Below, one piece after another: positions 14,872 to 34,993 of a stretch of 34,993 nucleotides of DNA; the first letter of the stretch is position 1; the number at the start of each line of letters is the position of its first letter. Source of the stretch: an uncultured Thermoplasmata archaeon (GTDB lineage Archaea > Thermoplasmatota > Thermoplasmata > UBA10834); contig CAYOXJ010000001.1 of the NCBI GenBank assembly GCA_964407905.1, positions 25,752 to 60,744 of the forward strand. The letters run 5' to 3'. Below the pieces are notes generated by a model, which had not been told where the DNA came from, searched no databases, and saw only the letters and a program-made list of their open reading frames with translations. Position numbers and translations under genes: made by a program.

Positions 14872-15348
14872 CTAGATGAACTCGGCCTCTATCTTCCTCA
14901 GAATCTTGGGCAGGGCTTTGGAGACCTCAGGCGTGAGATTCTCGCTGACGTTCGTGACGTCCTCTGCCTCTATTGCGAGGAAGACCACCTCCTTTGGCAT
15001 CTGCTCGGGGATGAGCCTCCTGCCAAGCGCAAGCGCAGTTGCCATGTTTATTCCATGAGGAGAGGACCCGTGAATAGCCTTTTCGAAATCCTTCTCATCC
15101 AGCACGTAGAGCTCACCCGGCCTTCCCTGCTTCGTCTGAATAGCATCTATGATAATGACCCTGTCATATCCTCTGACCACGTCGAGGAGTTCCAGGCCAC
15201 TTGCCGCGAGTTCCTCCACGTTGACCCCGGGAATCTCCTTGTCCCTCAGCCTTCTGGCAACATGGATTCCCACGCCGTCGTCAGATAGGATCGGATTGCC
15301 AACTCCAAGCACTAGGGTCTTCACAGATGTCCGTAGATCATTGGCCAT
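14872..15348 (-). CDS. Hydrogenase maturation endopeptidase (HyaD/HybD/FrhD family)
   Basis: 158 aa. The N-terminus LVLGVGNPILSDDGVGIHVA, the later IIIDA, and the His in GSSPHG are typical of Ni-dependent C-terminal processing proteases. It is the last gene of the mvh cluster. Confidence 0.85.
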   Translation of the reverse strand: MANDLRTSVKTLVLGVGNPILSDDGVGIHVARRLRDKEIPGVNVEELAASGLELLDVVRGYDRVIIIDAIQTKQGRPGELYVLDEKDFEKAIHGSSPHGINMATALALGRRLIPEQMPKEVVFLAIEAEDVTNVSENLTPEVSKALPKILRKIEAEFI

Positions 15349-15386
15349 AATAATCCTGACTCAGCGGTGGCAGGAAAAGCATAGTT

Positions 15387-15402: not shown

Positions 15403-15412
15403 GAGCTGTTGT

Positions 15413-16927
15413 TCAGAAGTTTCTCTGGGCAGTGAGGAGCGAGCCGTCCTTCCGCCTCACGTTGACCTCTAGCGCGGGAGCACCGTTCAAAGCGTGCGTG
15501 CCACACGAGTTGCACGGGTCGTAGCACCTGAAGGCCATCTCGACCTTGTTCAGAAGGCCGGGCGAGATTTCGCCGTTCTTGATCAGAGCCTTCGCTGCCT
15601 GTCTCACGCTCGTGTTTGTCGCAGCGTAGTTGTTGGTCGTCGCCACGATCATGTTAATCTTTGTGCACAGTCCGTTCTTGTCCGCTGCGTAGTGGTGAAT
15701 CAGGGTGCCCCTCGGTGCCTCGCATATGCCCACGCCCTCCTTTGGCTCCTTGAAGGGTCCTCTGATGTCGTCGCTGGTGATGCTCCTGTCGCTCGCGAGT
15801 TCGAGCATCCTCTCGGTCGCATATTGGAGCTCGATCACGCGCGCCCAGTGGAACGCGAGCGTGTGATGGACTGGACCCGTGACTCCGAGGTCCTTCATCG
15901 TCTTCTTGAAGATCTCGTACTCAGCCTGCGCCAGCGGGGTCGTGTACCCCGTGCAGACGTTTATCCTGCCCAGCGGACCAACTCTGTATATGCCGCTGGA
16001 GGCGCCGTCCACGAATCCTTTCCAGCCAACCTTCTTCAGGTATGGCATCTTCATGTAGGTCCAGGGCTCAACATGCTCGGCGATGACGTCCAAGTACTCG
16101 CTGGGCTTAAACTTCACGACCTCCTTGCCAGCCTGATCGACAACGCGTATGTCTCCGTCGTAGAAGTTGGTCTTGTTGTTCTTGTCGACCATGCCCATGT
16201 AGTAGGTCTCGAGGTAGTAGGCATCCTTGTTGAGCACGAAGCCCAGATAGTCCTTGTTGCCCAGCACCACGTCGTGGAACAGCTTGATGGTGAACTTGCC
16301 GAACTCGACGCAGGACTTCGCCATGTCCTCCATCTTCGCGCGCTCCTCCTCACTTATTTGCTTCGAGACGCCTCCGGGCAGGCCGAACACTGGGTGCGTT
16401 GCACGGCCGCCGACGATCTCCTGCACCTTCTGGCCGTAGGACCTGTGCTTGATGACCTCGGCACCTATCGGCACGCCCACGGCATCGACCACGCCCAGAA
16501 CGTTCCTCTTGTTCGAGGGCGCCGACGGGCCGAGCACGAAGTCAGGCGCAGCGAGGGCGTAGAAGTGGGCGATGTGGCTGTGGGTGTACTGCCCCATGTA
16601 GAACAGCTCCCTGAGCTTCTTTGCGGTCTCCGTTGGCGTTGCGTCGAACACCGCGTCCAGCGCCTTCGTCGATGCGATGTGATGTGCGGCTGGACAGACA
16701 CCGCAGAGCCTGTTCGTCAGCACGGGCAACTCCATCACGTGTCTGCCTATACAGAACCTCTCGAATCCCCTCAGCTCTGGGATCTGCAGGTACGCATTCT
16801 CGACGTTCCCTGCATCGTCCAGGAATATCTCGATCTTGCCATGTCCCTCTAGCCTCGTGATGGGGTCAATGGTTATCTTCCTCTCCTTCGTCTTCACTGG
16901 TGTGTCGTTGATAATTGGTCCAGCCAT
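15413..16927 (-). CDS. mvhA: [NiFe] hydrogenase large subunit, Mvh/Vhu-like (group 3c by context)
   Basis: 504 aa. It has RLEGHGKIEI and the N-terminal Ni-Fe ligand motif RLCGVCPAAHH. The C-terminal ligand motif DPCNSCGTH is followed by a 26-aa tail (ALNGAPALEV...), as expected for a protease-cleaved extension. Confidence 0.9.
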   Translation of the reverse strand: MAGPIINDTPVKTKERKITIDPITRLEGHGKIEIFLDDAGNVENAYLQIPELRGFERFCIGRHVMELPVLTNRLCGVCPAAHHIASTKALDAVFDATPTETAKKLRELFYMGQYTHSHIAHFYALAAPDFVLGPSAPSNKRNVLGVVDAVGVPIGAEVIKHRSYGQKVQEIVGGRATHPVFGLPGGVSKQISEEERAKMEDMAKSCVEFGKFTIKLFHDVVLGNKDYLGFVLNKDAYYLETYYMGMVDKNNKTNFYDGDIRVVDQAGKEVVKFKPSEYLDVIAEHVEPWTYMKMPYLKKVGWKGFVDGASSGIYRVGPLGRINVCTGYTTPLAQAEYEIFKKTMKDLGVTGPVHHTLAFHWARVIELQYATERMLELASDRSITSDDIRGPFKEPKEGVGICEAPRGTLIHHYAADKNGLCTKINMIVATTNNYAATNTSVRQAAKALIKNGEISPGLLNKVEMAFRCYDPCNSCGTHALNGAPALEVNVRRKDGSLLTAQRNF

Positions 16928-16931
16928 GTGA

Positions 16932-17948
16932 TCACCCCTTCCTTTTCTTCTTCTCGGTCACAGCCCTCTTCAGCGGGGACTTGGGTAGTGTGAAAGCGTA
17001 GAAGGTCCCAAGCGGGTCTTTGACCTGCATCATCATCTCCATGATCTGTTCCTCACTTAGCTTTGACTCCGAATCCGTGATGTTGAGGAGCGACGACAGT
17101 GCGCTCAGCATGCTAGCGCCCTGGTCGGTCACCGCCTTCGTCGGGCCCATGCAGCCTCTGCACGGCATATTCGCGTTCGGGCACATCGCGCCGCAGCCAG
17201 CCCGCGTCGCCGGGCCGATGCATATTATGCCCTGATCGAGCAAGCACTTCTTCGGGTCGGGCTTGATCTCGTAGGCCTGGTAGATCTTCTCAATCCTCCT
17301 GCCTTTCTCGACCCGCTCCCTCTTGCACTCGTCGCAGAGGGTCTTGTCCGAAGCGATGACCGTCCCCTTCGGCGGAAGAGGCGCTCCCTTCGTCACGTGC
17401 TGTGCCACCGCATCCACGGCCATGGCGATCAGGTTGACCGTGGGCGGGCAACCTGGCATGAAGTAATCGACGTCGACCACCTCGTCGAGCGTCTTGACTG
17501 TGTCGTAGAACTCGGGCAGTTCCAGCTCCCCCTCGGGAACCTTCAGATGCGACTGCGGGGTCACGAAACCTGGATTGTCGGTCGACACGGTATTCTTGTA
17601 GACCGTCTCGAAGACTTCCTTTCTGTTCGTCACGTTCGCTAGCCCGGGCGTCCCGCCGTAGCACGCGCACGAGCCGAAGGCAATCATGACAGCAGACTTC
17701 TCGCGCAGAATCTTGGCCACGTGCTCGTTTTCGGAGTTGCGAATCGCGCCATTGTAGAAGCTCACGGTTATGGACTTGTCCGGCATTGCCTCGATTTCCT
17801 TCAGCTTGCCGTCGAACCCGATCGGCCAGAACACGACCTCTGCGATCGCGTGGACGTCCAGGATCCTCGCATCGATGTCCAAGAGCGCGACGTCGCATCC
17901 TCCGCACCCCGCGCCCCAGTACTGTGCGATCTTGATCTTGTCTGCCAT
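16932..17948 (-). CDS. mvhG: [NiFe] hydrogenase small (Fe-S) subunit, MvhG-like
   Basis: 338 aa. It has the proximal-cluster motif YWGAGCGGCDVALLD, then GSCACYGG and MPGCPP. C-terminal Cys clusters are also present (CDECKRE, CIGPATRAGCGAMCPNANMPCRGC). Confidence 0.85.
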   Translation of the reverse strand: MADKIKIAQYWGAGCGGCDVALLDIDARILDVHAIAEVVFWPIGFDGKLKEIEAMPDKSITVSFYNGAIRNSENEHVAKILREKSAVMIAFGSCACYGGTPGLANVTNRKEVFETVYKNTVSTDNPGFVTPQSHLKVPEGELELPEFYDTVKTLDEVVDVDYFMPGCPPTVNLIAMAVDAVAQHVTKGAPLPPKGTVIASDKTLCDECKRERVEKGRRIEKIYQAYEIKPDPKKCLLDQGIICIGPATRAGCGAMCPNANMPCRGCMGPTKAVTDQGASMLSALSSLLNITDSESKLSEEQIMEMMMQVKDPLGTFYAFTLPKSPLKRAVTEKKKRKG

Positions 17949-17949: not shown

Positions 17950-18342
17950 TCAGTTCACCTCTACCTTCTCAGGCTGTGCCCTGCTTGGCGCGGCCCTGTA
18001 CTGCGGCGACTGACCCTTCATGCCGACCTGGTCAACCAGCCTCCATCTCTTGAGGGCGATTATGTGCTTCACGATCTCAGGCTTCGGTATGCCTGTGATG
18101 TCGTGCAGCTCGTGAACGGTCCTCGGGCCTTCCTCCATTTCCTGCAGCAAGAGGTTTCTCTCCAGCTCCACGCCTGCGGCCTTCTGCACTATGAAGCTGT
18201 ATCTCGCGTCAGTGATGGCCTCTCCGAAGACGTTTCCCTGTGTCGTCAGCTGGCCCTTCTTTCCCAGAAGCCATCTGACCCTCTCTCCCTCGACTGTTCT
18301 CAGTGCCGCGCGTATCTTGGCCTCCCTGATGGACATCCTCAT
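17950..18342 (-). CDS. Free-standing homologue of the winged-helix-like C-terminal extension that is fused to MvhD in the two upstream modules; function unknown
   Basis: 130 aa, ATGA-coupled to mvhD-d. TQGNVFGEAI and ERNLLLQEMEEGPRTVHELHDITGIPKPEIVKHIIALKRWRLV align by eye with EEGNVYGDKL...ERSLILLLTKNNNMSVKDLSKKMNVPTDRVLEHIVVLRQKNLI in ORF 21838-22602. Confidence 0.6.
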   Translation of the reverse strand: MRMSIREAKIRAALRTVEGERVRWLLGKKGQLTTQGNVFGEAITDARYSFIVQKAAGVELERNLLLQEMEEGPRTVHELHDITGIPKPEIVKHIIALKRWRLVDQVGMKGQSPQYRAAPSRAQPEKVEVN

Positions 18343-18803
18343 TCACCACCTACCATGGGGGACGGTCCAAGTTCCTTAATCGTGTTGGTGAAGGAGATGA
18401 TGGTCTTCTGGAACTTCTCGCCCTCGCCTGCTGATACCCATTCCAGGCGCAGCCTGTCAGGGTCGAATCCGAACTGCTGTATGAGCATCTTCAGCAGCGC
18501 CATCCTCCTGCGGGTCCTGTAGTTGCCGCCTATGTAGTGGCAGTCCGCGGGATGGCAGCCTGCAACGAGGATTCCATCGGCCCCCCTGTTGAACGCCCTC
18601 AGGACGAACTCGGGGTCCACTCTTGCGGAGCACATTACCCTGATCACCCTGAAGTAGGGGGGCATCTGCAGCCTGCTGACCCCAGCAAGGTCGGCGCCTG
18701 CGTACGAGCACCAGTTGCAACAGAACACGAGAATCTTGGGCTCGAACTGCCCGCCTGTCTCCTCGCCCTGGTGCGCGGAAGTGTGCGTCGCCTCGCTGCT
18801 CAT
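18339..18803 (-). CDS. mvhD: MvhD-type [2Fe-2S] iron-sulfur protein (copy d, stand-alone domain)
   Basis: The track ORF extends to 19037 inside hdrA, so I take ATG 18803 (MSSEATHT...), which overlaps the hdrA-d stop (ATGA), giving 154 aa. It has FCCNWCSYAGADLAG, VMCSARVDP and GCHPADCHY, the MvhD/FlpD signature. Confidence 0.85.
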   Translation of the reverse strand: MSSEATHTSAHQGEETGGQFEPKILVFCCNWCSYAGADLAGVSRLQMPPYFRVIRVMCSARVDPEFVLRAFNRGADGILVAGCHPADCHYIGGNYRTRRRMALLKMLIQQFGFDPDRLRLEWVSAGEGEKFQKTIISFTNTIKELGPSPMVGGE

Positions 18804-21800
18804 TGCTTCGCCTCCTGCTTCGGGTTTTCCCCCACGAGCGCAGCATCGATCATCGCGTAGATCTGCTCGTCCCTGTACCCCTTCTGTGTCAGCGCGCCAG
18901 ACGGGCATGCGCCTACACAGGCTCCGCAGCCCTTGCAGAGGCCGACGTTGATCTCGACAAGCTTCTTGTCTTTGTTCTTCTTGTCGGGTACGATCTCCAT
19001 GGCCTTGTACTCGCAGATGGGAACGCATATGCCACATCCGTCGCAGAAGGTCTCGTCGACGCTCGCGACGATGCCCTCAGCCTCGAGCGTCGTCTTCGAC
19101 AGCACGGTGGTCGCCCTCGAGACAGCAGCCAACGCCTGCGCGATGCTCTCGTCGACGAACTTCGGGCCATGCGCGAGACCCGCGAGGTATATGCCCTCCG
19201 TGGCGAAGTCAACCGGCCTGAGCTTCATGTGCGCCTCGAGGAAGAATCCCTCCTTTGTCTGGGGAACTTTGCACATGGGCGCCAGCTCACCGGCATCCTC
19301 CTGAGGCCTCGTGCCTGCAGCGAGGACCAGGTGGTCCGGCTTCAGGACGATCTCCTTGCCAGTGTCCTCGTCGGTCACGCTGACCTCGAGCTTTCCAGCC
19401 TTATCCTCGACACGTGGCTTGACCTTGTCATCAAATCGGACGAATATCACTCCTTTCGAGCCGGCTTCCTTGTAGTACTTCTCTCTGAATCCGTAGGTCC
19501 TGATGTCTCTGTAGAGCACGAAGACCTTCGCGTTGGGGTCCCTCTCCTTGATCTTCATCGCCGCGGTCATCGTGCCAGTGCAGCAGACGCGGGAGCAGTT
19601 CGGATTCTTATCCTCCCTCGAGCCTACGCACTGTATGAACACGTACTCCTTGCCCTTGGCCTCGCCCTTCGCAAGCTTGTCCTTGAGCTCGAGCAGAGTC
19701 ATGACTTTCTTGTTCTTGCCGTAGAGATACTCGCCCTCGGGCTTGTGCTCCTCGCCGCCTATGGCGACGATCACGATACCATGTTCGATCTCCTCGCCCG
19801 TCGTGAGCTTGGTCTTGAAGTTGCCAACATAGCCGTCCAGCGACTTGACCTTCGAGCCAAGGTAGACAGTTATATTCGGGCTCGAGGTGACCTTCTTGTC
19901 GAGCTCTCTCACGTACGCTGCGGGGTCGTCGCCCGATGGCAGGTAGTGAAGCTTCTTTGCATTTCCTCCGAGCTCCTTCTCTCTCTCGACCAGGTGCACT
20001 TTAAAGCCCTGCTTCGCGAGCTCGAGTGCTGCGACCATGCCAGAAACCCCTCCGCCGACTACCAATGCCTGCTGGTTGACGTTCATTGTCAGATTCTGCA
20101 GCGGCTCGAGTAGCCTCGCCTTCGCGACCGCCATCCTGACTAGGTCCTTCGCCTTCTTGGTGGCGGCCTTCGGCTCATGCATGTGTATCCACGAGCACTG
20201 GTCCCTGATGTTTGCCATCTCGAAAAGATAGGCATTGAGGCCCGCTTCTTTGATGGTGTTCTGGAACAGTGGCTCGTGAGTCCTTGGCGTGCAGCTCGCC
20301 ACCACCACCCTGTTCAGCTTCAGCTCCTTGACCTTCTCCTTGATCTTCTCCTGCGTGTCCTGGGAACAGGTGTATAGGTTCTGCTCAGCGTAAGCCACGT
20401 TGGGCAACGTCTTCGCATACTCCATGACCTCTGGAACCTTCACGACGCCGCCGATGTTGATCCCGCAGTGGCAGACGAAGACGCCTATCCTGGGCTCCTG
20501 GCCCTCGACACTCGTCTCGGGCGGGTATTCCTTCTTTGTGACAAGGGTGTTCCTCGCCCCAGCGATCTCGGTGCCGGCCTTCGCAGCTGCACCCGACGCC
20601 TCCGCGACTGTCATCGGGATGTCCTTTGGTGAAGAGAACGCGCCGCTGACGAATACCCCCGGCCTGGTGGTCTCGACCGGCGCGAACACGCTCGTCTGTG
20701 CGAACCCGTCGTCGTTCAGCTTGAACTCCATGATCTTGCTCAGGTTCTCGGCGTCCGCAGGTGGCCTGAGTCCAACGGCCAGGACGACGAGGTTGAACTC
20801 CTCCTCCTTCGGTTCGCCGTTCTCGACGTACTTGAGCTTCAGGTTCTTCGTCCTCGAATCCTCCGAGACGGCAGCGATCCTCGACCTGACGAACTTGATT
20901 CCATACTCGTTCTGTGCTCTGTTGTAGTACTCGTCGAACTCCTTGCCGAAAGCCCTCATGTCCATGAAGAATATTGAGGGCTTGATGTCACCGCCATGCT
21001 CCTTGGCGATGACCGCCTCCTTTATGGAGTACATGCAGCATACGCTCGAGCAGTATTCGTTTCCGCAGTGCTCGTCCCTGGATCCGACGCACTGGATGAA
21101 CGCGACCTTCTCCGGTATGTCGCCATCGGAAGGCCTCAGAACAGTGCCCATGTACGGTCCCGTGGCCGAGAGCATCCTCTCGAACTCGATGCTCGTGACG
21201 ACGTTCTTGTACACGCCATACCCGTACTCTGTCTTCAGCCGCGCATTGAACTCGTCGAAGCCTGGGGAGACGATGACAGAGCCGACCTTGATCTCAAGCA
21301 CCTTCTCCTTCTGGTCGTATTCCACAGCCTTCGCCTTGCACTCCTCAGCACATATCCCGCAGCCGATGCACTTGTCCGGGTCGATCGAGTAGACCAACGG
21401 AACGGCCTGCGGGTATCTCACGTAGATCGCCTTCCTCACCTTGGTGTTCTCGTCGAACTCGTTGGACGCTTCGATCGGACATTTCTGCGCACAGCTGCCG
21501 CAGCCAGTACACTTCTTCGGGTCCACTCTGAAGGCATGCTGCTTCACTATCACGCTGAAGTTGCCCGCCTCACCGTCGAGCTTCGCGATCTCTGCGTTTG
21601 TTATCAGCTCGATGTTGTGGTGCCTGCCCGTCGCGACCAGCTTCGGAGCCATGATGCACATGGCGCAGTCGTTGGTGGGGAAGGTCTTGTCGAGCTGTGC
21701 CATCACTCCGCCTATGCTCGGCTGCTTCTCGACCAGGTACACCCTGTATCCGGAGTCAGCAAGATCGAGAGCGGACTGCATCCCTGAGATGCCGCCGCCG

Positions 21801-25635: not shown

Positions 25636-25636
25636 C

Positions 25637-26429: not shown

Positions 26430-26702
26430 CTACCTCCCTATTGTGCCTGACATGAGCCCACGCACGCAGAGCATGAAATTGCACTCGTCGGTCAGTCTTC
26501 GTTCGCAAGTGTGACAGCGCAACGCGATGAGGAGGTTCCTCAGTATCAGACTCTTTGTCTCAGCATCTACATTGGGCAGCGAGGTCTCTGCCATCTCCAA
26601 GCTCTCATGCTGGACTCTCCCCCAACGCGGCAGAGTTGAGAAGTGTTTCTTGAACAGCCAAGCGGTCCTTATTGCGTTCACCTCGTCCTTCTCGTTCTTC
26701 AC
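26430..26702 (-). CDS. Hypothetical 90-aa protein with a C-terminal CxxC...C-x5-C motif (coding status uncertain)
   Basis: The ORF exactly fills the space between hdrA-b(C) and mvhD-b. Its GTG start forms a GTGA overlap with the hdrA-b(C) stop, and it ends 4 nt before the mvhD-b ATG. It contains RCHTCERRLTDECNFMLC. I recognise no homologue. Confidence 0.4.
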   Translation of the reverse strand: MKNEKDEVNAIRTAWLFKKHFSTLPRWGRVQHESLEMAETSLPNVDAETKSLILRNLLIALRCHTCERRLTDECNFMLCVRGLMSGTIGR

Positions 26703-28576
26703 AGGACCACCTCTTTGATCCCCGCCAAACCTTCGACGATGAGTTGTTCATCTGTATAGTGCAGCATTGTGATGGCCTTCTCAGGACACCCTGCTCCGCA
26801 CGCACCACAGCCCTTGCATGCAGCCTTGATCACCTTTGCCTTCATACCTTTGGGACCGCGTTCCACCGTGATTGCCGAGTACGGGCAAAGCGTTGCACAG
26901 ATTCCGCACCCTACACACGAGTCTGTGTCCACATCTGAGGCAATTGCCTCAGCGAGAACGTAGCCTTTGCTGAGAGGTATCGCAGCCCTTGACGCCGCTG
27001 CGGCCGCCTGCGTCACACATTCCGTGATATCGGATGGACCTCTGCAAGTCCCGCAGACATAGATGCCGTCCGTCGCGAAGTCAACTGGTCTCAGCTTCAC
27101 ATGCGCCTCCAGGAAGAACCCTTCCTGGCCCAGGGGTACCTTGAGCTTCTGCGACAGCTCGCCGGCATCTGGCTGGGCGACCAATGGTGTCGACAGGATG
27201 ACCATGTCGACAGCCATCGTCCTCTCGAGCTTCAGGGTCTCGTGGAAGTAGCCCACTGTCAGCTGGTTTCCTTCCATGAAGACCTTGGGCGCGTTTTCCG
27301 GGATGTATCTGACGAACTTGATTCTCTTCTCCCTCGCCTTGTTGTAGGTCAGCTCGTGCTCGACGCCGTAGGCCATGACGTCCCTGTTGAACACGGTGAT
27401 TTCTATTTTCTCAGAAGGCCCGAGCTTGACCTCCTCAGCCCCAGCTTCCTCACCTCTCTCGCGTCCGCGCCTTCTGCGCCTGCGCTCAAGGATCTCCTCG
27501 GGGGCCTTCTGCTCGACAGGTATCTTCTCGACGACCGTGCCCTCCTTCTCCATCAGGCCGAGCATGTTCTCGTAGTTGTCCACTATGTTCATCGCGTTTT
27601 TGACAGCGACGTTGCAGCAGATTCTTGAGCAGTAGCTCTTGACCTGGCCCCTCGAGCCGACGCATTGAATGAATGCGACGTTCTTGAGCTTCGGGAGCGT
27701 CTTCTTCTTGCAGAGTATCTCGAACTCGGTCAGCGTGACGACGTTGGGGTATTGGTTGTATCCGTACAGGCCCTCAGGAACGAACTCGAGGGCACCCGTT
27801 GCGACTATGATTGTTCCGACCTTCGCCTTCGTGTCCTCTGCGCCCTTGGTTCCTATGACGATGTCGTAATTGCCGATGAACCCCTGAACCGCCTTGAGCG
27901 TGGAGTTCATGTAGAGCTTGATGTTCTTGTGCGCCCCGACCTCCTCGATGAGCGGCTTGATGGTCTCGGTTGCGCTCTTCTCTGTGACGTAGAGGTTGTT
28001 CAGATTCCTCACGAAGCCGCCAAGCTCGTTCTCTTTCTCGATCAGATGAACCGGAAATCCCATGTCTGCCAGAGACAACGCGGCAGTCATGCCAGATACC
28101 CCACCACCTATCACCAGTGCTGCGGCGGTCACATCGACTTTCTCCTCTTCCTGCGGCTCGAGCAGCCTCGCCCTGGCGACGCCCATCCTGATCAGATCCC
28201 TGGCCTTCTTGGTCGCCTTGTCCTTCTCCTTCATGTGCACCCAAGAGCACTGCTCGCGGATGTTGACGAATGTGAACAGATACTTGTTCAGGCCTGCGCT
28301 CTCACAGGTCGCCTGGAATAGCGGCGCGTGGGTTCTTGGAGTGCAGCTGGCCACTATCACCCTGTTCAGGTTGTGCTTCTTGATCCCTTCCCTTATGTCG
28401 TTCAGACCATCCTCGGCGCAAGTGTAAAGATTGTCAGTAGCGTAGACAACGTCAGGGAGCGTCTTCGCGTACTCCGCGACCGACGGAACATCGACAAATC
28501 CACCGATGTTCGAACCACAATGGCATACGAACACGCCGATTCTCGGCCCTTGCTTGCTCTCAGTCTTCTCAGCCAT
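26699..28576 (-). CDS. hdrA: HdrA-like flavoprotein, copy b C-module as a separate gene (625 aa)
   Basis: It starts MAEKTESKQGPRIGVFVCHCGSNIGG, the HdrA N-domain. It continues with ASCTPRTH, VIGGGVSGM, CVGSRGQVKSYCSRICC and a C-terminal CVGCGICATLCP/CKGCGACGAGCP. GGAGGGG lies about 10 nt upstream of the ATG. Confidence 0.9.
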   Translation of the reverse strand: MAEKTESKQGPRIGVFVCHCGSNIGGFVDVPSVAEYAKTLPDVVYATDNLYTCAEDGLNDIREGIKKHNLNRVIVASCTPRTHAPLFQATCESAGLNKYLFTFVNIREQCSWVHMKEKDKATKKARDLIRMGVARARLLEPQEEEKVDVTAAALVIGGGVSGMTAALSLADMGFPVHLIEKENELGGFVRNLNNLYVTEKSATETIKPLIEEVGAHKNIKLYMNSTLKAVQGFIGNYDIVIGTKGAEDTKAKVGTIIVATGALEFVPEGLYGYNQYPNVVTLTEFEILCKKKTLPKLKNVAFIQCVGSRGQVKSYCSRICCNVAVKNAMNIVDNYENMLGLMEKEGTVVEKIPVEQKAPEEILERRRRRRGRERGEEAGAEEVKLGPSEKIEITVFNRDVMAYGVEHELTYNKAREKRIKFVRYIPENAPKVFMEGNQLTVGYFHETLKLERTMAVDMVILSTPLVAQPDAGELSQKLKVPLGQEGFFLEAHVKLRPVDFATDGIYVCGTCRGPSDITECVTQAAAAASRAAIPLSKGYVLAEAIASDVDTDSCVGCGICATLCPYSAITVERGPKGMKAKVIKAACKGCGACGAGCPEKAITMLHYTDEQLIVEGLAGIKEVVL

Positions 28577-28582: not shown

Positions 28583-29893
28583 TCACGCCCCTCCCGCCTG
28601 GGCAGTGGCCTGTGCCATGACCTCAACCGCCTTTGCGGCAGCGCTCGAGCCCTGGGCGACGCTTTCTGGTATGTCCGCTGGTCCTGCGCAGTAGCCGGCC
28701 AAGTACATGCCGGGGACGACGGTCCTGCCGAAGTCAAGTATCCTGTCGGTTGATTCCAGGAATCCGAATTCGTCGGTCTTCAGTCCCAGGATCTTGGCAA
28801 GCTCCAATGTCTCCTTTCTCGGGACGAGAGTGGTCGCGAGGACTACCATGTCGAACTCCTCGGACTGTTGCCTCCCGCCCACGTCGAACACAACAATCGG
28901 GTTATGGGTTTCGGGGTTCTCCTGAACGGTAGCGTCTGAGTTGATGTATCTCACACCGTAGTCGCGCTTGGCCCTTTCGATGTACTCGTAGAATCCCTTG
29001 GCGCACGCTCGCATGTCCTTGTAGAAGATGGTCGACTCCATGTCGTCGTGGTGCTCGCGTGCCAACATTGACTCCTTGGTGGAGTGCATGCAGCACACCG
29101 AACAGCAGTACGGATGTCCAACCTGCGGGTTTCTCGAGCCCACGCACTGGATGAACGCCATCTTCATGGGTCTCTTCTTGTCTGATCTGCGCTCGATGTG
29201 TCCATGGGTCGGGCCCGCGGCATTGATCATCCGCTCGTATTCCATCGCCGTGAAGACGTTCGGGTACTTGCCGTACCCGTACTCCGTCGACGAGGAGGGG
29301 TCCCAGACGTCATAGCCAGTTGCGACTATTATCGCGCCGACCTCGATCTCCAGCATCTGGTCCTTCATCTCGTAGTCGATCGCCTCTCTCTTGCAGGCCT
29401 TCTTGCAGTTCCCGCACTTGCCCTTGGTGAACATGATGCAGTTCTCTTTGTCGATCGTCATGACTCTGGGCACTGCCTGCATGAAGGGCATGTATATCGC
29501 CTTCCTGTTGGCGAGCCCCATCTCGAACTCGTTCGGGACCTTGCTCGGGCACTTCTCGAGGCATTCTCCGCAGCCAGTGCATTTCGTCTCGTCCACGAAC
29601 CTGGCCTTCTTAAGCACCTTGACTCTGAATCCGCCAGCCTTCCCCTCGACTCCGACCGCCTCCGCGTATGTGATGACGTTTGTGTTTGGGTGGCTGAAGC
29701 AGTCCGCCATCTTCGGTGCCAGAATGCATATCGAACAGTCGTTCGTCGGGAACGTCTTGTCCAGCTGTGCCATTCGTCCGCCGATGCTGGGCGTCTTCTC
29801 GATTAAGTGGACTATTATTCCCTTGTCAGCGAGGTCAAGGGCCGCCTGTATCCCAGCGACTCCTCCCCCGATCACCATCACAGACCTCTCCAT
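28583..29893 (-). CDS. hdrA: HdrA-like flavoprotein, copy b N-module as a separate gene (436 aa)
   Basis: VIGGGVAGIQAALDLADKG, DKTFPTNDCSICILAPKM, an inserted ferredoxin-like region (CTGCGECLEKCP, then the divergent CIMFTKGKCGNCKKAC) and CVGSRNPQVGHPYCCSVCC. It ends at the position that is the inter-module linker in the fused copies. AAGGAGG lies upstream of the ATG. Confidence 0.9.
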   Translation of the reverse strand: MERSVMVIGGGVAGIQAALDLADKGIIVHLIEKTPSIGGRMAQLDKTFPTNDCSICILAPKMADCFSHPNTNVITYAEAVGVEGKAGGFRVKVLKKARFVDETKCTGCGECLEKCPSKVPNEFEMGLANRKAIYMPFMQAVPRVMTIDKENCIMFTKGKCGNCKKACKREAIDYEMKDQMLEIEVGAIIVATGYDVWDPSSSTEYGYGKYPNVFTAMEYERMINAAGPTHGHIERRSDKKRPMKMAFIQCVGSRNPQVGHPYCCSVCCMHSTKESMLAREHHDDMESTIFYKDMRACAKGFYEYIERAKRDYGVRYINSDATVQENPETHNPIVVFDVGGRQQSEEFDMVVLATTLVPRKETLELAKILGLKTDEFGFLESTDRILDFGRTVVPGMYLAGYCAGPADIPESVAQGSSAAAKAVEVMAQATAQAGGA

Positions 29894-30014: not shown

Positions 30015-30392
30015 TCACTTCGCGAGTAGGCTCTGCACCTCCTTTCCCTTCTCGATTTCCGTGACCTTCACTTTGAACGGCGCCTTCTTCTTCTGCACCT
30101 CTCTTGCGAACCTCTGGCAGTTCGGATAGGTACATGGGGAGCACTTCTTGTCCTTGCAGGAGAGCTCGATCAGGACCAAACGCTCTCTCGTGTCCTGAGG
30201 CTTCGTCATCGGCTTCTTGATCTCGAACGTCTTCGTCATTCGGGTCTCGAAAGGCACCTTCTTGGGGACCGTTCTGACAAATCTCTGGCAGTTAGGATAG
30301 GTGCACGGGGAGCACTTCCGGTCTTTGCACGAGAGCTCGACCAGGAGATACCTATCCACTTCTCCCTCCGTTTTCTGTGCTTGCGGGTTCAT
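30015..30392 (-). CDS. Small basic protein made of two tandem ~57-aa repeats, each with a C-x4-C-x2-C-x4-C motif; function unknown
   Basis: 125 aa. Repeat 1 is LLVELSCKDRKCSPCTYPNCQRFVRTVPKKVPFE. Repeat 2 is LVLIELSCKDKKCSPCTYPNCQRFAREVQKKKAPFK. GGAG lies 8 nt upstream of the ATG. It starts 18 nt downstream of the mvhD-hdrCB stop. Confidence 0.65.
   Translation of the reverse strand: MNPQAQKTEGEVDRYLLVELSCKDRKCSPCTYPNCQRFVRTVPKKVPFETRMTKTFEIKKPMTKPQDTRERLVLIELSCKDKKCSPCTYPNCQRFAREVQKKKAPFKVKVTEIEKGKEVQSLLAK
30112..30175 (-). repeat. Intragenic direct repeat, unit 2 (encodes the second Cys4 motif)
   Basis: This 64-nt block matches 30283-30346 at about 56 of 64 positions in my hand alignment. 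The offset is 171 nt, which is 57 codons. Confidence 0.8.
30283..30346 (-). repeat. Intragenic direct repeat, unit 1 (encodes the first Cys4 motif)
   Basis: See 30112-30175. CTCTGGCAGTTAGGATAGGTGCACGGGGAGCACTTCCGGTCTTTGCACGAGAGCTCGACCAGGA aligns with CTCTGGCAGTTCGGATAGGTACATGGGGAGCACTTCTTGTCCTTGCAGGAGAGCTCGATCAGGA. Confidence 0.8.
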
Positions 30393-30410: not shown

Positions 30411-32012
30411 TCATTCGAGCGCTTCTGCGACGACCACGCTCAGGTCCTTGATCGGGATCTCGATCTGCTCCTTTGGCGTCTGCGTCTTGTTGTTCACGAT
30501 GGCACAGCTCAGGTGTATCAGGCACTTGTAGCAGCCTGTCACGAGACATCCCGCGCCGGACTTCTTGGCCTCTTTGAGCCTCTCGACCTGGAGCTTCCGG
30601 GATATCTCATCGCAGGTGGCCCACGCGCTGACGCCGCAGCACACAGCCTTGTCCCTCGTGTTCTCCATCTCCACTAGCTGCGTGCCCTCGACAGCCTTCA
30701 GAGCATTCCTGGGCGCGTCGAAGATGCCAAGGTGTCTGCCCAGCCTGCATGAATCCTGAAAGGTGAATTTCCCGGTGCCCTTCTTGAACCTCAGCTTGCC
30801 CTCTTGCACGAGATCGTCGATCAGTTCTGAAATATGCATCATCTCGAAGTCGAAGTCCCCCATGAAGTCCTGGTAGTCCAAGTTGAAAGTGCGCATGCAC
30901 TCAGGGCACGAGAACACGACCTTCTTCGCGCCCGAAGCCTTTATGAGCTCGACATTCTTCTTCATCAGTTTCTGAAGGCTGGCCTCGTCGCCTATCCAGT
31001 TGAGGTCATGTCCGCAGCATACTTCGTCGTTGCTGACGACCGGGACAATGCCCGCCCTGTTCATAATCTTTACTGCAGCCTGGGGTATGCCAGCGAGTTT
31101 GAGATCTTCCCTGTCCTTGAATATTGAATCGTAATAGGATACGCAGCCCGTGAAGTAGAAGACATCGCCCTTGTCGGATATCTTGAGCTCGGGCGTCATC
31201 CAGCCGATGCGGTTCTGCTTCAGTTTGCTGTTCGCCTGGATGCGCATGACCGCTTGGATGATACCTCCCTGAGAACAAACGGCCTCATTCCCCAACGCAG
31301 AGGCCTCGGCTCTCATGCCCCTGATGAAGCCCGAGTAATCGACCTTGTAGGGACACATCGCGTTGCACTGTTCACAGGTCACGCAGGTCCAAACATCGCG
31401 ATTCGTCGCGACATTGTCAACGATGCCCTCCATGGCCTTGAGCACGATTGTCCTCGGGGCGAAGTTCGGGTTGTATTTCGCGACTGGGCACACGGTAGTG
31501 CACTTGCCGCACTCGACACAGTCGAACGCACCAGTGTCTTCAATCAGCTGGTCAATCTTCTTCTTCAGGTTGGCGGGATTGCTCTTTCTCGACTGCGCCC
31601 TTGGGAGCGGATTCGGTCCGATGACCCGGATCTGCTCAGTGAACTCCCTCATTGTGGCAGCGAACTTCTGCCCCTCCGAGGCGGATATCCATTCGAGCCT
31701 CATGCGGTTCCTGCCGAGGCCTAGTTTGTCCAAGACTTCCATCGTAGAGGCCATTCGCTTCTCGGCCTCGACATTCCCCTTGACGTAGTGACAGTCCCCT
31801 ATGTGACAGCCGGCGACAAGAACGCCATCCGCTCCAAGTTCGAGCGCCTTCAGGACGAAGTACGGTTCCACGCGGCCCGAGCACATGACTCTGATGATCC
31901 TCGCATTGGCAGGATACTGCATCCTGGAGACGCCCGCGAGGTCTGCACCTGCGTATGAGCACCAGTTGCAGCAGAAGGCGACTATGTTCGGCTCGAACTT
32001 CGCGTCCGTCAT
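30411..32012 (-). CDS. Triple fusion MvhD-HdrC-HdrB (MvhD [2Fe-2S] domain + 2x[4Fe-4S] ferredoxin + two CCG domains)
   Basis: 533 aa. The MvhD part has FCCNWCSYAGADLAG, VMCSGRVEP and GCHIGDCHY. The HdrC-like part has CVECGKCTTVCP and CVTCEQCNAMCP. The HdrB-like CCG motifs are GCVSYYD...EVCCGHD...SCPECM and DSCRLGRH...AVCCGVS...GCYKCL. The ATG overlaps the hdrA-a stop (ATGA). Confidence 0.85.
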   Translation of the reverse strand: MTDAKFEPNIVAFCCNWCSYAGADLAGVSRMQYPANARIIRVMCSGRVEPYFVLKALELGADGVLVAGCHIGDCHYVKGNVEAEKRMASTMEVLDKLGLGRNRMRLEWISASEGQKFAATMREFTEQIRVIGPNPLPRAQSRKSNPANLKKKIDQLIEDTGAFDCVECGKCTTVCPVAKYNPNFAPRTIVLKAMEGIVDNVATNRDVWTCVTCEQCNAMCPYKVDYSGFIRGMRAEASALGNEAVCSQGGIIQAVMRIQANSKLKQNRIGWMTPELKISDKGDVFYFTGCVSYYDSIFKDREDLKLAGIPQAAVKIMNRAGIVPVVSNDEVCCGHDLNWIGDEASLQKLMKKNVELIKASGAKKVVFSCPECMRTFNLDYQDFMGDFDFEMMHISELIDDLVQEGKLRFKKGTGKFTFQDSCRLGRHLGIFDAPRNALKAVEGTQLVEMENTRDKAVCCGVSAWATCDEISRKLQVERLKEAKKSGAGCLVTGCYKCLIHLSCAIVNNKTQTPKEQIEIPIKDLSVVVAEALE

Positions 32013-34993
32013 GCCTTGGCTTCCTCCTGCTCAAGCTCCTTCCTGAGCGCAGCTTCTATCATCGTGAGTATCTGTTCTGTCTTGAAGTGCTTCGGCCTTA
32101 TCGCGCGGGAGCAGCAAGCGACTGCACATGATCCGCAGCCCTTGCAGAGAGCCTCGTTGATCTTCGACTTGAACACCCCTGGAGCGACCTCCTCGACCCG
32201 TGGCGCTCCGTACTCGCAGATCTCCTCACACCTGCCGCAGGCGATGCACTTCTCCTCGTCGACGACGCTCACGACGCCCTCGGCCTCGATGAAGGATTTC
32301 GACAGAACCGTGTTCACCCTTGCGGCTGCCGCAAGTGCCTGCGAGATGCTCTCGTCGATAAGCCTCGGCGAGTGCGCCAGTCCGCAGAGGAATATGCCAT
32401 CCGTGGCGAAGTCAATCGGCCTTAGCTTCATGTGCGCCTCGAGGAAGAACCCCTCCTTCGTCAGAGGCACCTTCAGCAACTTGGCCAGCTCACTGTTGTC
32501 TGGGTTTGGGTGCACCGCAGCGTTCAGGACCAGGTAGTCTGTCTTGATCTTGACGGGCTGTTCGATGAACTGTTCCTCGACTTCAACCATCACATGGTTG
32601 TGGTCCGCAGTCACCTTTGGCGGGGACGCGGGATCATATCTCAGGAATGTCACTCCAAGCCTCGCGGCCTCGTTGTAGTGTTCCTCTGCAAACCCATAGG
32701 TCCTGATGTCTCTGTAAAGCACGAACACGTTGGTGTTCGGATGCTCCGTCTTGATCTTGACTGCGTTGGCCATCGCTGTAGAGCAGCAGATTCGGGAGCA
32801 GCTCGGGTGCTCCTCGTTCCTGGAGCCAACACACTGTATGAACACGACGTTGTTGGCCTCGAACTTACCATCGTGCAAGAGCATTCCGAGGTCTGTCTGC
32901 TTGATGACCTTCGGGTGCTTTCCGTGCAAGTATTCGGTCGGGCTGTACTCGATCGCGCCTGTGGCCACAACAATGGCACCGTGCTTGATTTTCTCGCCGC
33001 TCTTGAGTGTCGTCTCGAAGTTGCCGATGTAGCCCTTGAGCTCCGCAACCTGGTCAGAAAGATGGATTTTGACATTCTTGTGATCTTCGAGGTCCTTCTT
33101 CAGTCTCTTGAGAGTGTCCTGCGGATCAACGCCAGCAAGGGTATGGTAGATGTTCTTGAGATGTCCACCAAGATCTCCGTCCTTGTCGACCAAATGCACT
33201 TCATAGCCAGCCTTTGCGATCTCCAGAGCGGCTGACATGCCGCTCAGCCCACCTCCGATCACAAGCGCGGACGGTGTCACAGGTATCTTTGGCTGAGGCA
33301 GGGGCTCGAGCATCGCGGCCTTCGCCACGGCCATGCGCACGAGGTCCTTCGACTTCTCTGTCGCCCTCTCGGGCTCCAGCCTATGCACCCACGAGCATTG
33401 ATCTCTGATGTTGGCCATCTCGAAGAGGTACTTGTTCAGGCCAGCCTCCCTTACTGTGTTCTGGAACAGGGGCTCGTGGGTCCTAGGAGTGCAGCTCGCG
33501 ACCACGACCCTGTTGAGGTCGTGCTTCTCGATCATCTCCTTGATCTTCTTCTGAGTGTCCTGTGAGCACGTGTACAGATTCCTCTCAGTGTACACCACGC
33601 GGGGAAGCTTTGAGGCGTACTCGACGACCTCTGGGACGTTCACAACTGCACCTATGTTTATGCCGCAGTGGCAGACGAACACGCCTATCCTCGGCTCCTT
33701 CTTGGAGACGTCCTTCTCCTCTGGATACTCCTTCTTCGTGACGAGCTTCCCGCGCTCCTCCGAGAGAAGAGCAGCGACCTTTCCGGCCGCTCCGCTGGCC
33801 TGCGCCACCGAGTCCGGGATATCCTTCGGGCCAGAGAATGCCCCGCAAACGAAAATCCCTGGCACCGAAGAATCCACGGGCGTCAGATCGTCCGTCTCGC
33901 AGAAACCAAACTTGTTGAGCTTGATTCCGAGGGTCCTGGCCATCGCCTCGGCGCTCGCAGGTGGCCTCGCTCCCGCAGAGAGGATGACCATGTCGAAGGT
34001 CTCCTCTAGGATTTCTGGACCCGAGTGATAGATGAGAACGAGCTCGTTGGTCTTGGGGTCCTCTTGGACCTTCGGGACCCTATTGTTCCTGCGAATGGTG
34101 ACGCCGTACTCGTTCTCTGCCCTGTTAAGGTACTCCTCGAACTCCTTTCCGAAGGCACGCGTGTCCATGAAGAATATGGTGGCCTTCAGACCAGGGACGT
34201 GCTCCTGGGCTATGACTGCCTGCTTCAGTGCAGCCATGCAGCAGTATGACGAGCAGTATGTGTTCGGCGTCTGAGCGTCCCTGGAACCGACGCACTGGAC
34301 GAAGGCGATCTTCCTTGGCACGTCGCCATCCGATGGCCTTATCACATGTCCTTCAGTCGGTCCAGAAGCACTCAACATCCGTTCGAACTCGATGTTTGTG
34401 AGAACGTTCGGGAACACGCCATGGCCGTACTCGACCTTCTTGGCAGCGTCGTAAACCTCGTATCCCGGGCTTATTATAATCGCGCCGACCTCGATGACCT
34501 CTTCCTTGTCAGGCTCCATGCTGTACTGGATTGCCTTGGCCTCGCAGAACTTCTCACAGACTCCGCAGCCGATGCAAAGGCCACGGTCTATCGTGTAGAT
34601 CAAAGGCACTGCCTGGGGGAAGGGCACATAGATCGCCTTGCTCGGAGCCATGTCCCTGTCAAATACGTTCGTTCCTTCGATGGGACAGTGCTCTGCGCAC
34701 ACTCCGCAGCCCGTGCACTTGTCCTCGAGGATGTACCTCGAGCGCCTTGAGAGCGTGACCTTGAAGTTGCCTGCCTCGCCCTCCACCTTCTTGAGTTCGG
34801 CATGGGTCAACATCGTGATGTTCTCGTGCCTGCCGGTCGCAACGAGCTTGGGCGAGAGAATGCACATGGAGCAGTCGTTGGTGGGGAAGGTCTTGTCGAG
34901 CTGGGCCATCGTCCCTCCGATGCTCGCTCCGGCCTCGAGGATGTAGACCTTGAACCCGGAGTCCGCGAGGTCCAGCGCAGCTTGCATTCCCGC
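32009..34993 (-). CDS. hdrA: Double-module HdrA-like flavoprotein, copy a (N-terminus truncated by the window edge)
   Basis: The frame is open to the window end (..AGMQAALDLADSG lies inside the Rossmann motif). It has DKTFPTNDCSMC, CTGCGVCAEHCP/CIGCGVCEKFC, RIGVFVCHCGINIGA, VIGGGLSGM, CVGSRNEEHPSCSRICC and CIACGRCEEIC/CKGCGSCAVACC. Confidence 0.9.
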   Translation of the reverse strand, partial: AGMQAALDLADSGFKVYILEAGASIGGTMAQLDKTFPTNDCSMCILSPKLVATGRHENITMLTHAELKKVEGEAGNFKVTLSRRSRYILEDKCTGCGVCAEHCPIEGTNVFDRDMAPSKAIYVPFPQAVPLIYTIDRGLCIGCGVCEKFCEAKAIQYSMEPDKEEVIEVGAIIISPGYEVYDAAKKVEYGHGVFPNVLTNIEFERMLSASGPTEGHVIRPSDGDVPRKIAFVQCVGSRDAQTPNTYCSSYCCMAALKQAVIAQEHVPGLKATIFFMDTRAFGKEFEEYLNRAENEYGVTIRRNNRVPKVQEDPKTNELVLIYHSGPEILEETFDMVILSAGARPPASAEAMARTLGIKLNKFGFCETDDLTPVDSSVPGIFVCGAFSGPKDIPDSVAQASGAAGKVAALLSEERGKLVTKKEYPEEKDVSKKEPRIGVFVCHCGINIGAVVNVPEVVEYASKLPRVVYTERNLYTCSQDTQKKIKEMIEKHDLNRVVVASCTPRTHEPLFQNTVREAGLNKYLFEMANIRDQCSWVHRLEPERATEKSKDLVRMAVAKAAMLEPLPQPKIPVTPSALVIGGGLSGMSAALEIAKAGYEVHLVDKDGDLGGHLKNIYHTLAGVDPQDTLKRLKKDLEDHKNVKIHLSDQVAELKGYIGNFETTLKSGEKIKHGAIVVATGAIEYSPTEYLHGKHPKVIKQTDLGMLLHDGKFEANNVVFIQCVGSRNEEHPSCSRICCSTAMANAVKIKTEHPNTNVFVLYRDIRTYGFAEEHYNEAARLGVTFLRYDPASPPKVTADHNHVMVEVEEQFIEQPVKIKTDYLVLNAAVHPNPDNSELAKLLKVPLTKEGFFLEAHMKLRPIDFATDGIFLCGLAHSPRLIDESISQALAAAARVNTVLSKSFIEAEGVVSVVDEEKCIACGRCEEICEYGAPRVEEVAPGVFKSKINEALCKGCGSCAVACCSRAIRPKHFKTEQILTMIEAALRKELEQEEAKA

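Follow-up and report, generated by a model that had tools for sequence, protein, structure and literature searches.

The closest described systems to the locus considered here are the fused or tandem HdrA proteins of anaerobic methanotrophic archaea (ANME), including HdrA3/4, HdrA5/6 and HdrA12/13, read by Chadwick et al. as intramolecular heterodimers (PMC9012536), and the MetFV-HdrABC-MvhD complex of Moorella thermoacetica, reported to use a fused HdrA (PMC9012536, citing Mock et al. 2014). In methanogens, very large Hdr assemblies are built on polyferredoxin, and alternative input modules attach to Hdr through MvhD/VhuD (PMC13518236). The present analysis concerns a stretch of 34,993 nucleotides of contig CAYOXJ010000001.1 from an uncultured Thermoplasmata archaeon, referred to at its full length as the window, which carries a single-strand gene array comprising four paralogous double HdrA cores, one MvhD domain behind each of them, and the genes of an Mvh-type [NiFe] hydrogenase. 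The array is genuine, old, under selection and conserved, and its products probably operate as a hydrogenase accompanied by four HdrA cores in parallel modular units, not as one obligate giant complex.

The closest named relative of the host is RBG_19FT_COMBO_56_21, order UBA10834/Ca. Gimiplasmatales. UBA10834 is described as non-methanogenic and devoid of mcr, with carbon monoxide dehydrogenase/acetyl-CoA synthase, Wood-Ljungdahl genes, non-pyrrolysine MttB homologues and retained hdr genes (10.1101/2020.03.09.984617). The order corresponds to Ca. Gimiplasmatales, including the genus COMBO-56-21, for which an anaerobic life by methylotrophic acetogenesis and a tetrahydrofolate branch with methylenetetrahydrofolate reductase (MTHFR) are proposed (PMC11264602). 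Because the lineage is reported to lack methyl-coenzyme M reductase (MCR) (10.1101/2020.03.09.984617; PMC11264602), the heterodisulfide of coenzymes M and B, CoM-S-S-CoB, is doubtful as a substrate. The literature found under the name of the metagenome-assembled genome (MAG), UBA10834 and Gimiplasmatales mentions Hdr/Mvh genes and does not describe the array.

Organization of the array

The array comprises 15 tightly packed, co-directional open reading frames (ORFs), all on the minus strand, running from 34993 to 14872. Adjacent ORFs overlap by 4-8 nt or are separated by 0-18 nt, with the exception of two spacers of 121 nt (29894-30014) and 64 nt (15349-15412), in which the sole signal found by reading is a Shine-Dalgarno-like AGGAGG ahead of hdrA-bN. 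Domains were assigned by Pfam and NCBIfam profiles together with motif reading, and the ratios of nonsynonymous to synonymous substitution (dN/dS) were computed against the orthologues of RBG_19FT_COMBO_56_21 (locus L001). Read along the minus strand, with wH denoting a winged-helix part, the genes are:

32009..34993, minus strand: hdrAA-a, fused double HdrA (Pfam, two Pyr_redox_2 and Fer4; dN/dS 0.084)
30411..32012, minus strand: mvhD::hdrC::hdrB, triple fusion of 533 aa (FlpD 2.3e-54, Fer4_8, two CCG; dN/dS 0.099)
30015..30392, minus strand: Cys125, putative metal or Fe-S mini-protein (sub-threshold PF04060 'FeS', 22.2 bits against a cut-off of 23; dN/dS 0.068)
28583..29893, minus strand: hdrA-bN, separate N-half gene (thioredoxin reductase (TrxR) domain, Cys194/197, inserted ferredoxin; dN/dS 0.051)
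26699..28576, minus strand: hdrA-bC, separate C-half gene (HdrA N-domain, TrxR domain, C-terminal ferredoxin; dN/dS 0.059)
26430..26702, minus strand: orf90 (four Cys, LRCHxCERxxxDxCNFxxCxRGLxSG; dN/dS 0.077)
25637..26425, minus strand: mvhD::wH-b, MvhD with a C-terminal helical/winged-helix extension (FlpD 6.6e-54, weak HTH_20)
22603..25644, minus strand: hdrAA-c, fused double HdrA (1013 aa from a GTG start; dN/dS 0.069)
21838..22602, minus strand: mvhD::wH-c (FlpD 4.9e-52; dN/dS 0.104)
18800..21841, minus strand: hdrAA-d, fused double HdrA adjoining the hydrogenase genes (dN/dS 0.108)
18339..18803, minus strand: mvhD-d, stand-alone MvhD of 154 aa (FlpD 1.2e-55; dN/dS 0.128)
17950..18342, minus strand: wH-d, the winged-helix extension as its own gene (HTH_5; dN/dS 0.193)
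16932..17948, minus strand: mvhG, [NiFe]-hydrogenase small subunit (Oxidored_q6 2e-20)
15413..16927, minus strand: mvhA, Mvh/Vhu-type (group 3c-like) [NiFe]-hydrogenase large subunit (NiFeSe_Hases)
14872..15348, minus strand: HycI-type hydrogenase maturation protease (HycI 2.7e-16)

The original prediction, made from the letters of the window, counted 14 ORFs, one fewer than are present and than its own list names; each of the ORFs exists on the minus strand where it had been placed. The 121-nt and 64-nt spacers and the limit of 18 nt on the other gaps were confirmed at the junctions, every domain call agrees with the Pfam/NCBIfam annotation, and the cluster is indeed of Hdr/Mvh type and confined to one strand, its TrxR-like flavin modules numbering eight and its MvhD domains four. 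As had likewise been remarked, no mvhB, fdh or mcr gene occurs anywhere in the window.

Architecture of the double HdrA cores

Each of the four double HdrA units displays two Pyr_redox_2/flavin adenine dinucleotide (FAD) units in Pfam; three are single chains of about 1000 aa and the fourth, copy b, is split at the half boundary into proteins of 436 and 625 aa, encoded by genes 6 nt apart. The fused HdrAs carry four ferredoxin-type Cys motifs each, the second of which is altered in copy b: alignment to HdrA of 5ODC discloses a 5-residue insertion in the second inserted-ferredoxin motif of hdrA-bN. In a sequence search against solved structures, the best matches of hdrAA-c (1010 aa in its database record) are the methanogen HdrA proteins 5ODC, 8RVU, 9SFI and 7BKB, each matched in three pieces, and no solved structure of a double HdrA turned up. 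The three pieces comprise (i) residues 12-376, aligned with 146-511 of 5ODC HdrA, the TrxR domain with its inserted ferredoxin; (ii) residues 450-603, aligned with 2-155, the N-terminal cluster domain; and (iii) residues 861-1001, aligned with 505-648, the end of the TrxR domain and the C-terminal ferredoxin.

The alignment of all eight halves to the 5ODC HdrA sequence, rebuilt from structure-search alignments, gives the same division in the four copies. The N-halves comprise the LDKTFPTNDC194xxC197 motif, whose Cys197 corresponds to Cys63 of the 1013-aa hdrAA-c, an inserted 2x[4Fe-4S] ferredoxin and the HA3 motif, without the HdrA N-domain and without the C-terminal ferredoxin. The C-halves comprise the N-domain with its conserved Cys (CHCGxNI), GGGxxG, HA3, FFLEAHxKLRPVDFAT and a C-terminal 2x[4Fe-4S] ferredoxin, without Cys194/197 and without the inserted ferredoxin. 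The HA3 [4Fe-4S] motif, C386-x(n)-C399-x3-C403-C404, occurs in eight of the eight halves, the C-terminal FAD segment PKDIP/SP(K/R)xI aligns in both halves, and GGGxxG is present in both halves of copies b, c and d. In copy a, which misses about 19 N-terminal residues at the window end, GGGxxG is seen in the C-half only, the N-half motif lying beyond that end; the remaining sequence displays NDCSMC, CHCGINI and two HA3 motifs. A symmetric homodimer would place all HdrA features on one unit; here, they are distributed over two non-identical halves or genes, with two HdrA units per chain and the N-domain and Cys197 on complementary halves. Each double HdrA therefore looks like a fused asymmetric pseudo-heterodimer, and the predicted core would have one low-potential exit and one MvhD entry, compared to two of each in the canonical homodimer. 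The NCBIfam models score below their cut-offs, including HdrA2 (1001 bits on hdrAA-c, in three separate stretches, against 1100), HdrA (745 against 1400) and hdrA_Methbact (701 against 1300).

The pairwise identity of copies a, c and d is 56-58%, with 58% computed for c and d, for which 55-65% had been estimated by eye, and copy b shares 44-49% with the others. The orthologues of hdrAA-a in loci L001, L008, L014 and L089 are 74-85% identical to it. A separate peculiarity of hdrA-bC is a highly charged insertion of 53 aa (including EILERRRRRRGRERGEEAGAEE; residues ~337-389, window ~27400-27560), which comes after the HA3 motif and is found, among the C-halves, in copy b only.

Adaptors and small cysteine-rich proteins

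The four FlpD/MvhD domains (Pfam, E 1e-52 to 1e-56) stand one behind each HdrA core, in four different settings: (i) core a is followed by MvhD::HdrC::HdrB; (ii) core b by orf90 and MvhD::wH; (iii) core c by MvhD::wH; and (iv) core d by MvhD and a separate wH protein. All four preserve the [2Fe-2S]-type Cys pattern CNWCSY, MCSxR and GCHxxDCH, with CNWCSY/MCSGR/GCHIGDCH in the triple fusion and GCHPADCH as the last motif of mvhD-d, whose ATG overlaps the stop of hdrAA-d by 4 nt.

The triple-fusion gene overlaps hdrAA-a by 4 nt, and its product comprises, besides MvhD, an HdrC part with two CxxCxxCxxxCP motifs and an HdrB part with two CCG domains, each of the pattern C...CC...CxxC, and CPEC/CYKC. 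Full-length homologues are common in Thermoplasmata, and the best 120 matches are nearly all of 530-558 aa. Behind it, Cys125 displays an internal duplication, with two copies of L(V/I)ELSCKDxKCSPCTYPNCQRF and four Cys in each, and is preserved in the same position in L001, L008, L014 and L089.

Among the winged-helix proteins, mvhD::wH-c is 48% identical to mvhD::wH-b over the full length, and wH-d shares 26-34% with the C-terminal parts of the two fusions. In Pfam, wH-d alone exceeds a family threshold (HTH_5, 25.1 bits, cut-off 22); the extensions of mvhD::wH-b and mvhD::wH-c stay below theirs (HTH_20, 25.7 against 27; HTH_5, 20.9 against 22; HTH_24, 17.1 against 21.9), and NCBIfam HTH_metalloreg gives 23-26 against a cut-off of 55. 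The AlphaFold2 (AF2) model of MvhD::wH-b is confident (pLDDT 87, pTM 0.84), with the extension packed on the MvhD domain; in Foldseek, residues 1-130 match MvhD of 5ODC/8RVU/7BKB (E 1e-14), and the C-terminus gives weak matches to the ArsR/SmtB fold (E 5e-3 to 4e-2). The MvhD::wH fusion has more than 7000 homologues at E<=1e-10. In contrast to this abundance, the orf90 family comprises eight representatives among 1.84 billion protein cluster representatives and has no Pfam or NCBIfam match; it is preserved throughout L001-L007, where one array may hold as many as three copies. Since it recurs in these arrays, preserves an invariant CxxC-x8-C-x4-C motif, and is found at the C-terminus of MvhD-wH in a natural MvhD-wH-orf90 fusion (P0365), orf90 is most likely a physical partner of the MvhD-wH adaptor.

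Hydrogenase and maturation genes

MvhA displays the L1 motif RLCGVCPAAH at residue 73 and the L2 motif DPCNSCGTH at residue 470, and ends in a 26-residue tail of the type cut by a maturation protease. The best NCBIfam matches are VhuA for MvhA (413 bits, cut-off 800) and VhuG for MvhG (234 bits, cut-off 450); as these are the top models and yet remain under their cut-offs, the two proteins fit distant members, not equivalogs, of the VhuA/VhuG families. One further maturation gene faces the array:

13815..14861, plus strand: hypE, accessory maturation gene, convergent with the array (AIRS and AIRS_C)

An AIRS/AIRS_C gene also adjoins the cluster in L004 and L005. As a side observation, the window that encodes the [NiFe] hydrogenase and HypE also holds a gene for a NikR-like nickel-responsive regulator (NikR_C; 1692-2087, plus strand).

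Assembly support, selection and age

Three independent assemblies match the window at 99.85-99.97% identity over 3.1-9.4 kb, including (i) a Logan SRR9661821 contig of 9.4 kb, matching 25475-34891; (ii) a JGI 3300031877 contig of 8.2 kb, matching 19315-27546; and (iii) an ENA ERZ781360 contig of 3.1 kb, matching 24123-27208. Taken as a set, these contigs cover the junctions of core a, the fusion gene, Cys125, bN, bC, orf90, MvhD-wH-b, core c, MvhD-wH-c and core d. For the spanned stretch, an assembly artefact or a recent duplication can be discarded, as the three assemblies agree and the paralogues are 44-58% identical. Decay of individual copies can be discarded as well: dN/dS lies between 0.05 and 0.19 for 15 of the 15 genes, so that no copy is a decaying relic.

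In a distance (neighbour-joining) tree of the paralogues, the a-, c- and d-type HdrAs fall into separate clades, each with orthologues from other genomes, which places the duplications before the divergence of these lineages. Module c stands apart in several respects. The G+C content at third codon positions (GC3) of 21838-26425, comprising mvhD::wH-b, hdrAA-c and mvhD::wH-c, is 0.58-0.65 (0.65 for hdrAA-c itself), compared to 0.74-0.83 in the flanking hdr/mvh genes; hdrAA-c groups in the tree with modules of other Thermoplasmata lineages; and module c and orf90 are missing from the sister genomes of L008, L014 and L089. On these grounds, module c looks like a later arrival, and the pattern suggests a later acquisition or a replacement by recombination, or else a different expression.

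The clades, the dN/dS values and the three assemblies bear out the old, maintained paralogue array of the original prediction. Mis-assembly, which it had singled out for checking, is not seen at the paralogue junctions spanned by the independent contigs, and the gene order that it proposed to seek in related genomes recurs in L001.

Related loci and distribution

The locus of Euryarchaeota archaeon RBG_19FT_COMBO_56_21 (L001; GCA_001800815.1) displays the same gene order as the array in the window, with 14 of the 15 proteins at 76-91% identity and HycI at 62%. L001, L008, L014 and L089 preserve the gene order, with proteins 74-91% identical to those of the window. In L089 (JGI 3300044798, ~81% identity), the genes upstream of hdrAA-a are hypF, hypC, hypA and hypD, followed by a canonical hdrA-hdrC-hdrB-mvhD set encoding proteins of 696, 196, 306 and 150 aa, respectively, in which HdrA combines the N-domain, the equivalent of Cys194/197, the inserted ferredoxin and the C-terminal ferredoxin. 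In L001, hdrB and mvhD are visible ahead of hdrAA-a before the locus ends. The window cuts the cluster; judged by these relatives, the full locus most likely comprises five units of HdrA type, as many MvhD domains and two HdrBC units. The single HdrB/HdrC unit noted in the original prediction is thus correct for the window; for the cluster, it is probably an effect of the window end.

The number of modules varies among the relatives, with three in L008, L014 and L089, four in the window and L001, and five in L004 and L005; orf90 occurs in only some of the relatives with module arrays. The complete Thermoplasmata genomes CP070751, CP070739, CP070672 and CP070726 encode homologues at 62-67% identity, in arrays of four to five [MvhD-wH, orf~100, double HdrA] modules. 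The position of the hydrogenase genes varies too: mvhGA lies nearby on the other strand in L004 and L005 and is not seen in the 23-kb loci fetched for L006 and L007. The proposal that the modules converge on one MvhAG is therefore only partly sustained. A single mvhGA pair does end the array, but its sharing among the modules is a reading of gene order alone, and the more distant relatives with four to five modules, in which mvhGA is on the opposite strand or unseen, do not support it. The most widely conserved block, hdrAA-d-mvhD-mvhG-mvhA, recurs in L025 and L009; L010 has it too, up to a cut at mvhG.

The breadth of the double HdrA was surveyed with each GTDB species represented by a single genome, and over 600 matches were obtained. 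Among the matches listed, which do not include the closest relatives and reach at most 59% identity, full-length double HdrAs at 47-59% occur in many archaeal and bacterial lineages. The archaea comprise Thermoplasmata, Bathyarchaeia, Asgard, Archaeoglobi, Methanoperedens, ANME-2 and Altiarchaeales, and the bacteria include Dehalococcoidia, Desulfobacterota, Clostridia/Bacillota and Planctomycetes. In 80 loci, whose ORFs were labelled by BLAST against the window proteins over 10 kb on either side, the commonest unit is HdrCB + double HdrA + MvhD(-wH), present once in 59 loci, twice in 15 and three times in six; among the loci examined, four or five units are seen only in Thermoplasmata. The MvhD-wH fusion follows the double HdrA in many phyla among these loci, and split HdrA pairs of the copy b kind are not confined to the window, with further examples in loci of Asgard, Bathyarchaeia, Desulfobacterota and ANME-2.

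The neighbors of the unit differ among the loci. In a Desulfoscipio geothermicus MAG (L086, 3619-14645), HdrCB-double HdrA-MvhD stands beside NuoE/NuoF/2Fe-2S-type genes and is also flanked by aldehyde:ferredoxin oxidoreductase; in L006, an FrhB/FdhB-like gene lies beside the unit; and in L001, a molybdopterin oxidoreductase gene comes after hycI. As judged by gene context, this illustrates a unit paired with different electron-input modules in other phyla.

Functional model and alternative explanations

In the proposed mechanism, each core would transfer electrons from FAD to the N-domain cluster, to which the other half contributes Cys197 as the completing ligand, and through the inserted ferredoxin to ferredoxin, with a single MvhD entry. 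MvhAG would oxidize H2 and pass the electrons by MvhD-d to core d; MvhAG-MvhD-d-HdrAA-d, the block most widely conserved, is read as the H2-linked unit. Core a would deliver high-potential electrons to the tethered HdrCB disulfide reductase. Cores b and c would act in parallel as alternative bifurcating or confurcating units, whose MvhD-wH adaptors may dock other partners or share MvhAG/HdrBC. The separability of the units is read from the variable number of modules (three, four or five) and the variable position of mvhGA, which, together with the apparent later arrival of module c, argue against a giant complex of fixed stoichiometry. For the same reasons, the much larger multi-flavin assembly, one of the two stoichiometric options left side by side by the original prediction, is the less favored.

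Several observations weigh against parallel modular units built on asymmetric cores. The tight overlaps suggest translational coupling and fit one fixed multi-subunit complex equally; no gene in the window points to a partner of core b or core c; the MvhD domains resemble one another to about the same degree (57-62%), and their sequences do not single out the one that binds MvhAG; the AF2 model of the whole hdrAA-c, from an alignment of 10 sequences, is of moderate quality (pLDDT 72, pTM 0.69); and the Cys197 half precedes the N-domain half, the opposite of the order given for ANME HdrA3/4 (PMC9012536).

These overlaps, in an array of 15 co-directional genes, are also what would be expected of one fixed super-assembly of four or five cores, MvhD adaptors, small Cys proteins, HdrBC and a single MvhAG, in which the wH extensions and orf90/Cys125 would serve as connectors or electron relays between cores. 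The modelled ArsR/SmtB-like fold of the extensions would suit such a role, ArsR/SmtB proteins being typically dimers, as would the natural fusion that physically joins orf90 to MvhD-wH, and the very large Hdr assemblies of methanogens offer a precedent (PMC13518236). The assembly is nevertheless unlikely: MvhB/VhuB polyferredoxin, the linker of the methanogen super-assembly, is absent from the window, close relatives differ between three and five modules and in the presence of orf90, in L004-L007 mvhGA either lies on the opposite strand or does not appear within the locus fetched, and module c looks later added by its GC3, its clade and its absence from sister genomes. A multi-core bifurcation machine of a kind not seen before, in which the lineage-specific adaptors (MvhD-wH, the four-Cys protein orf90, Cys125 and the MvhD-HdrCB fusion) link four or five asymmetric HdrA cores in a chain to a single hydrogenase, appears quite improbable; if true, H2 oxidation at one site would supply multiple bifurcating flavins, serially or in parallel, and would do so in an archaeon that is not a methanogen.

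It is possible, though doubtful, that the clustering with mvhAG is largely historical and that the hydrogenase works with module d alone, or perhaps also with the canonical HdrABC set upstream. The partners of modules a, b and c would then be unlinked MetF/MTHFR, formate dehydrogenase-like, NAD(P)H or F420 modules, and the three would mostly confurcate or run in other directions, within a metabolism resembling that of methylotrophic acetogens. The units beside NuoE/NuoF-like (L086) and FrhB/FdhB-like (L006) genes and the molybdopterin oxidoreductase after hycI in L001 point this way, as do the fused HdrA reported for the Moorella MetFV-HdrABC-MvhD complex (PMC9012536), the methylotrophic acetogenesis and MTHFR-containing branch proposed for the genus (PMC11264602) and the non-pyrrolysine MttB homologue in the window. 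No such dehydrogenase gene occurs in the window, however, and the modules are packed with mvhGA in apparently one or two transcription units; in addition, this explanation overlaps with that of parallel modular units, from which it differs mainly in the extent of MvhAG sharing. A regulatory role, with MvhD-wH and wH-d as redox-sensing ArsR-type transcription factors of the cluster and not enzyme subunits, is highly improbable. The three copies in one array each stand directly behind a double HdrA gene, the MvhD-wH fusion follows the double HdrA in many phyla, the AF2 model is a confident single body (pTM 0.84) with the extension packed on MvhD, and a natural fusion links MvhD-wH to orf90; set against this are the ArsR/SmtB-like fold, the weak HTH_5/HTH_20 matches, mostly below cut-off, and automatic JGI names such as 'delta subunit/ArsR family regulator'.

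Other genes of the window

The rest of the window holds housekeeping genes together with the NikR-like regulator, a non-pyrrolysine MttB homologue, a PAS histidine kinase, a MobA-like gene and hypE. The MttB-superfamily methyltransferase (476 aa; 3159-4589, minus strand) has no in-frame stop, as expected of a non-pyrrolysine member, and fits the methylotrophy proposed for the lineage. Just upstream of it lies a tRNA of 103 nt with an intron of ~31 nt (4679-4781, minus strand; Rfam 46 bits, missed by ARAGORN), whose anticodon, read by eye, is probably CUC (Glu). The hybrid sensor kinase (1282 aa; 7838-11686, plus strand) comprises a receiver, multiple PAS domains, GAF and HATPase_c, and is followed by two ORFs (11772-12428 and 12410-13069) for which Pfam gave no match.

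Significance and comparison with known systems

All components of the array are members or variants of known families, and the fused asymmetric HdrA + MvhD unit is published and widespread. The contrast with textbook loci drawn in the original prediction accordingly overstates the novelty (PMC9012536), and the locus alone overturns nothing, as its building blocks have all been published and clusters with several HdrA have been conceived of in print before. What is unusual is the concatenation of four, probably five, such units with a hydrogenase in a lineage reported to lack MCR, together with the fusions of MvhD to HdrCB and to wH and with orf90, a partner restricted to the lineage. Beyond the methanogens, bifurcating flavoproteins of the HdrA type abound and are almost uncharacterized in function. 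In this locus and those related to it, asymmetric HdrA cores form a compact natural series (fused, split, tethered to HdrCB or provided with wH and small Cys adaptors) that adjoins a defined electron donor in a lineage for which MCR is reported missing. Purified cores could show whether the fused HdrA does function as a one-sided pseudo-dimer, the role of the MvhD extensions, and the disulfide or other acceptor that replaces CoM-S-S-CoB.

The double HdrAs of the window share with the fused HdrAs of ANME and Moorella a length of about 1000 aa, two HdrA-like TrxR units and the complementary N-domain/Cys197 halves, and match proteins of ANME-2 and Methanoperedens contigs over their full length at 48-51% identity. 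As in ANME, the cluster holds several hdrA copies together with mvhD and a gene for an HdrBC/HdrD-like protein. In contrast to both, the array comprises four head-to-tail units, each with its own MvhD, and ends in mvhGA; no FdhAB-like or MetFV gene occurs in the window, and the host is a non-methane-metabolizing member of the Thermoplasmata.

Compared to the methanogen HdrABC-MvhAGD complex (5ODC, 8RVU, 7BKB), all cofactor motifs of HdrA, MvhD, HdrC and HdrB and the L1 and L2 motifs of MvhA are preserved, and the MvhD domain is 59% identical to chain D of 5ODC, with a TM-score of 0.85 normalized to the target. Canonical HdrA is a symmetric homodimer of ~650-aa chains, whereas here one chain contains two non-equivalent halves, with one N-domain, one inserted and one C-terminal ferredoxin per pair. 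HdrA2 of the Methanosarcina acetivorans HdrA2B2C2 complex provides the best NCBIfam model (NF040770) for all HdrA halves and MvhD domains; HdrA2 is an HdrA::MvhD fusion with a single HdrA unit, whereas MvhD is not fused to HdrA in the window.

The Qmo layout of sulfate reducers comprises an HdrA-like flavoprotein of ~430 aa followed by a longer HdrA-like Fe-S flavoprotein with an MvhD domain. The split copy b resembles this QmoA/QmoB layout in its gene arrangement and differs from it in that MvhD forms a protein of its own, joined to a winged-helix domain. Membership in QmoABC was rejected, as the window holds no QmoC/HdrE-type membrane heme subunit; the qmoC model reaches 38 bits against a cut-off of 300, in the HdrC part only. 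Finally, the genome of Desulfobacterium autotrophicum HRM2 resembles the locus in its many hdrA-type genes, nearly all followed by mvhD and including one tandem locus (PMC2702500), and differs in that these genes are distributed over nine loci of a bacterium (PMC2702500), compared to the four or five units of the present array, which are gathered in one archaeal cluster.

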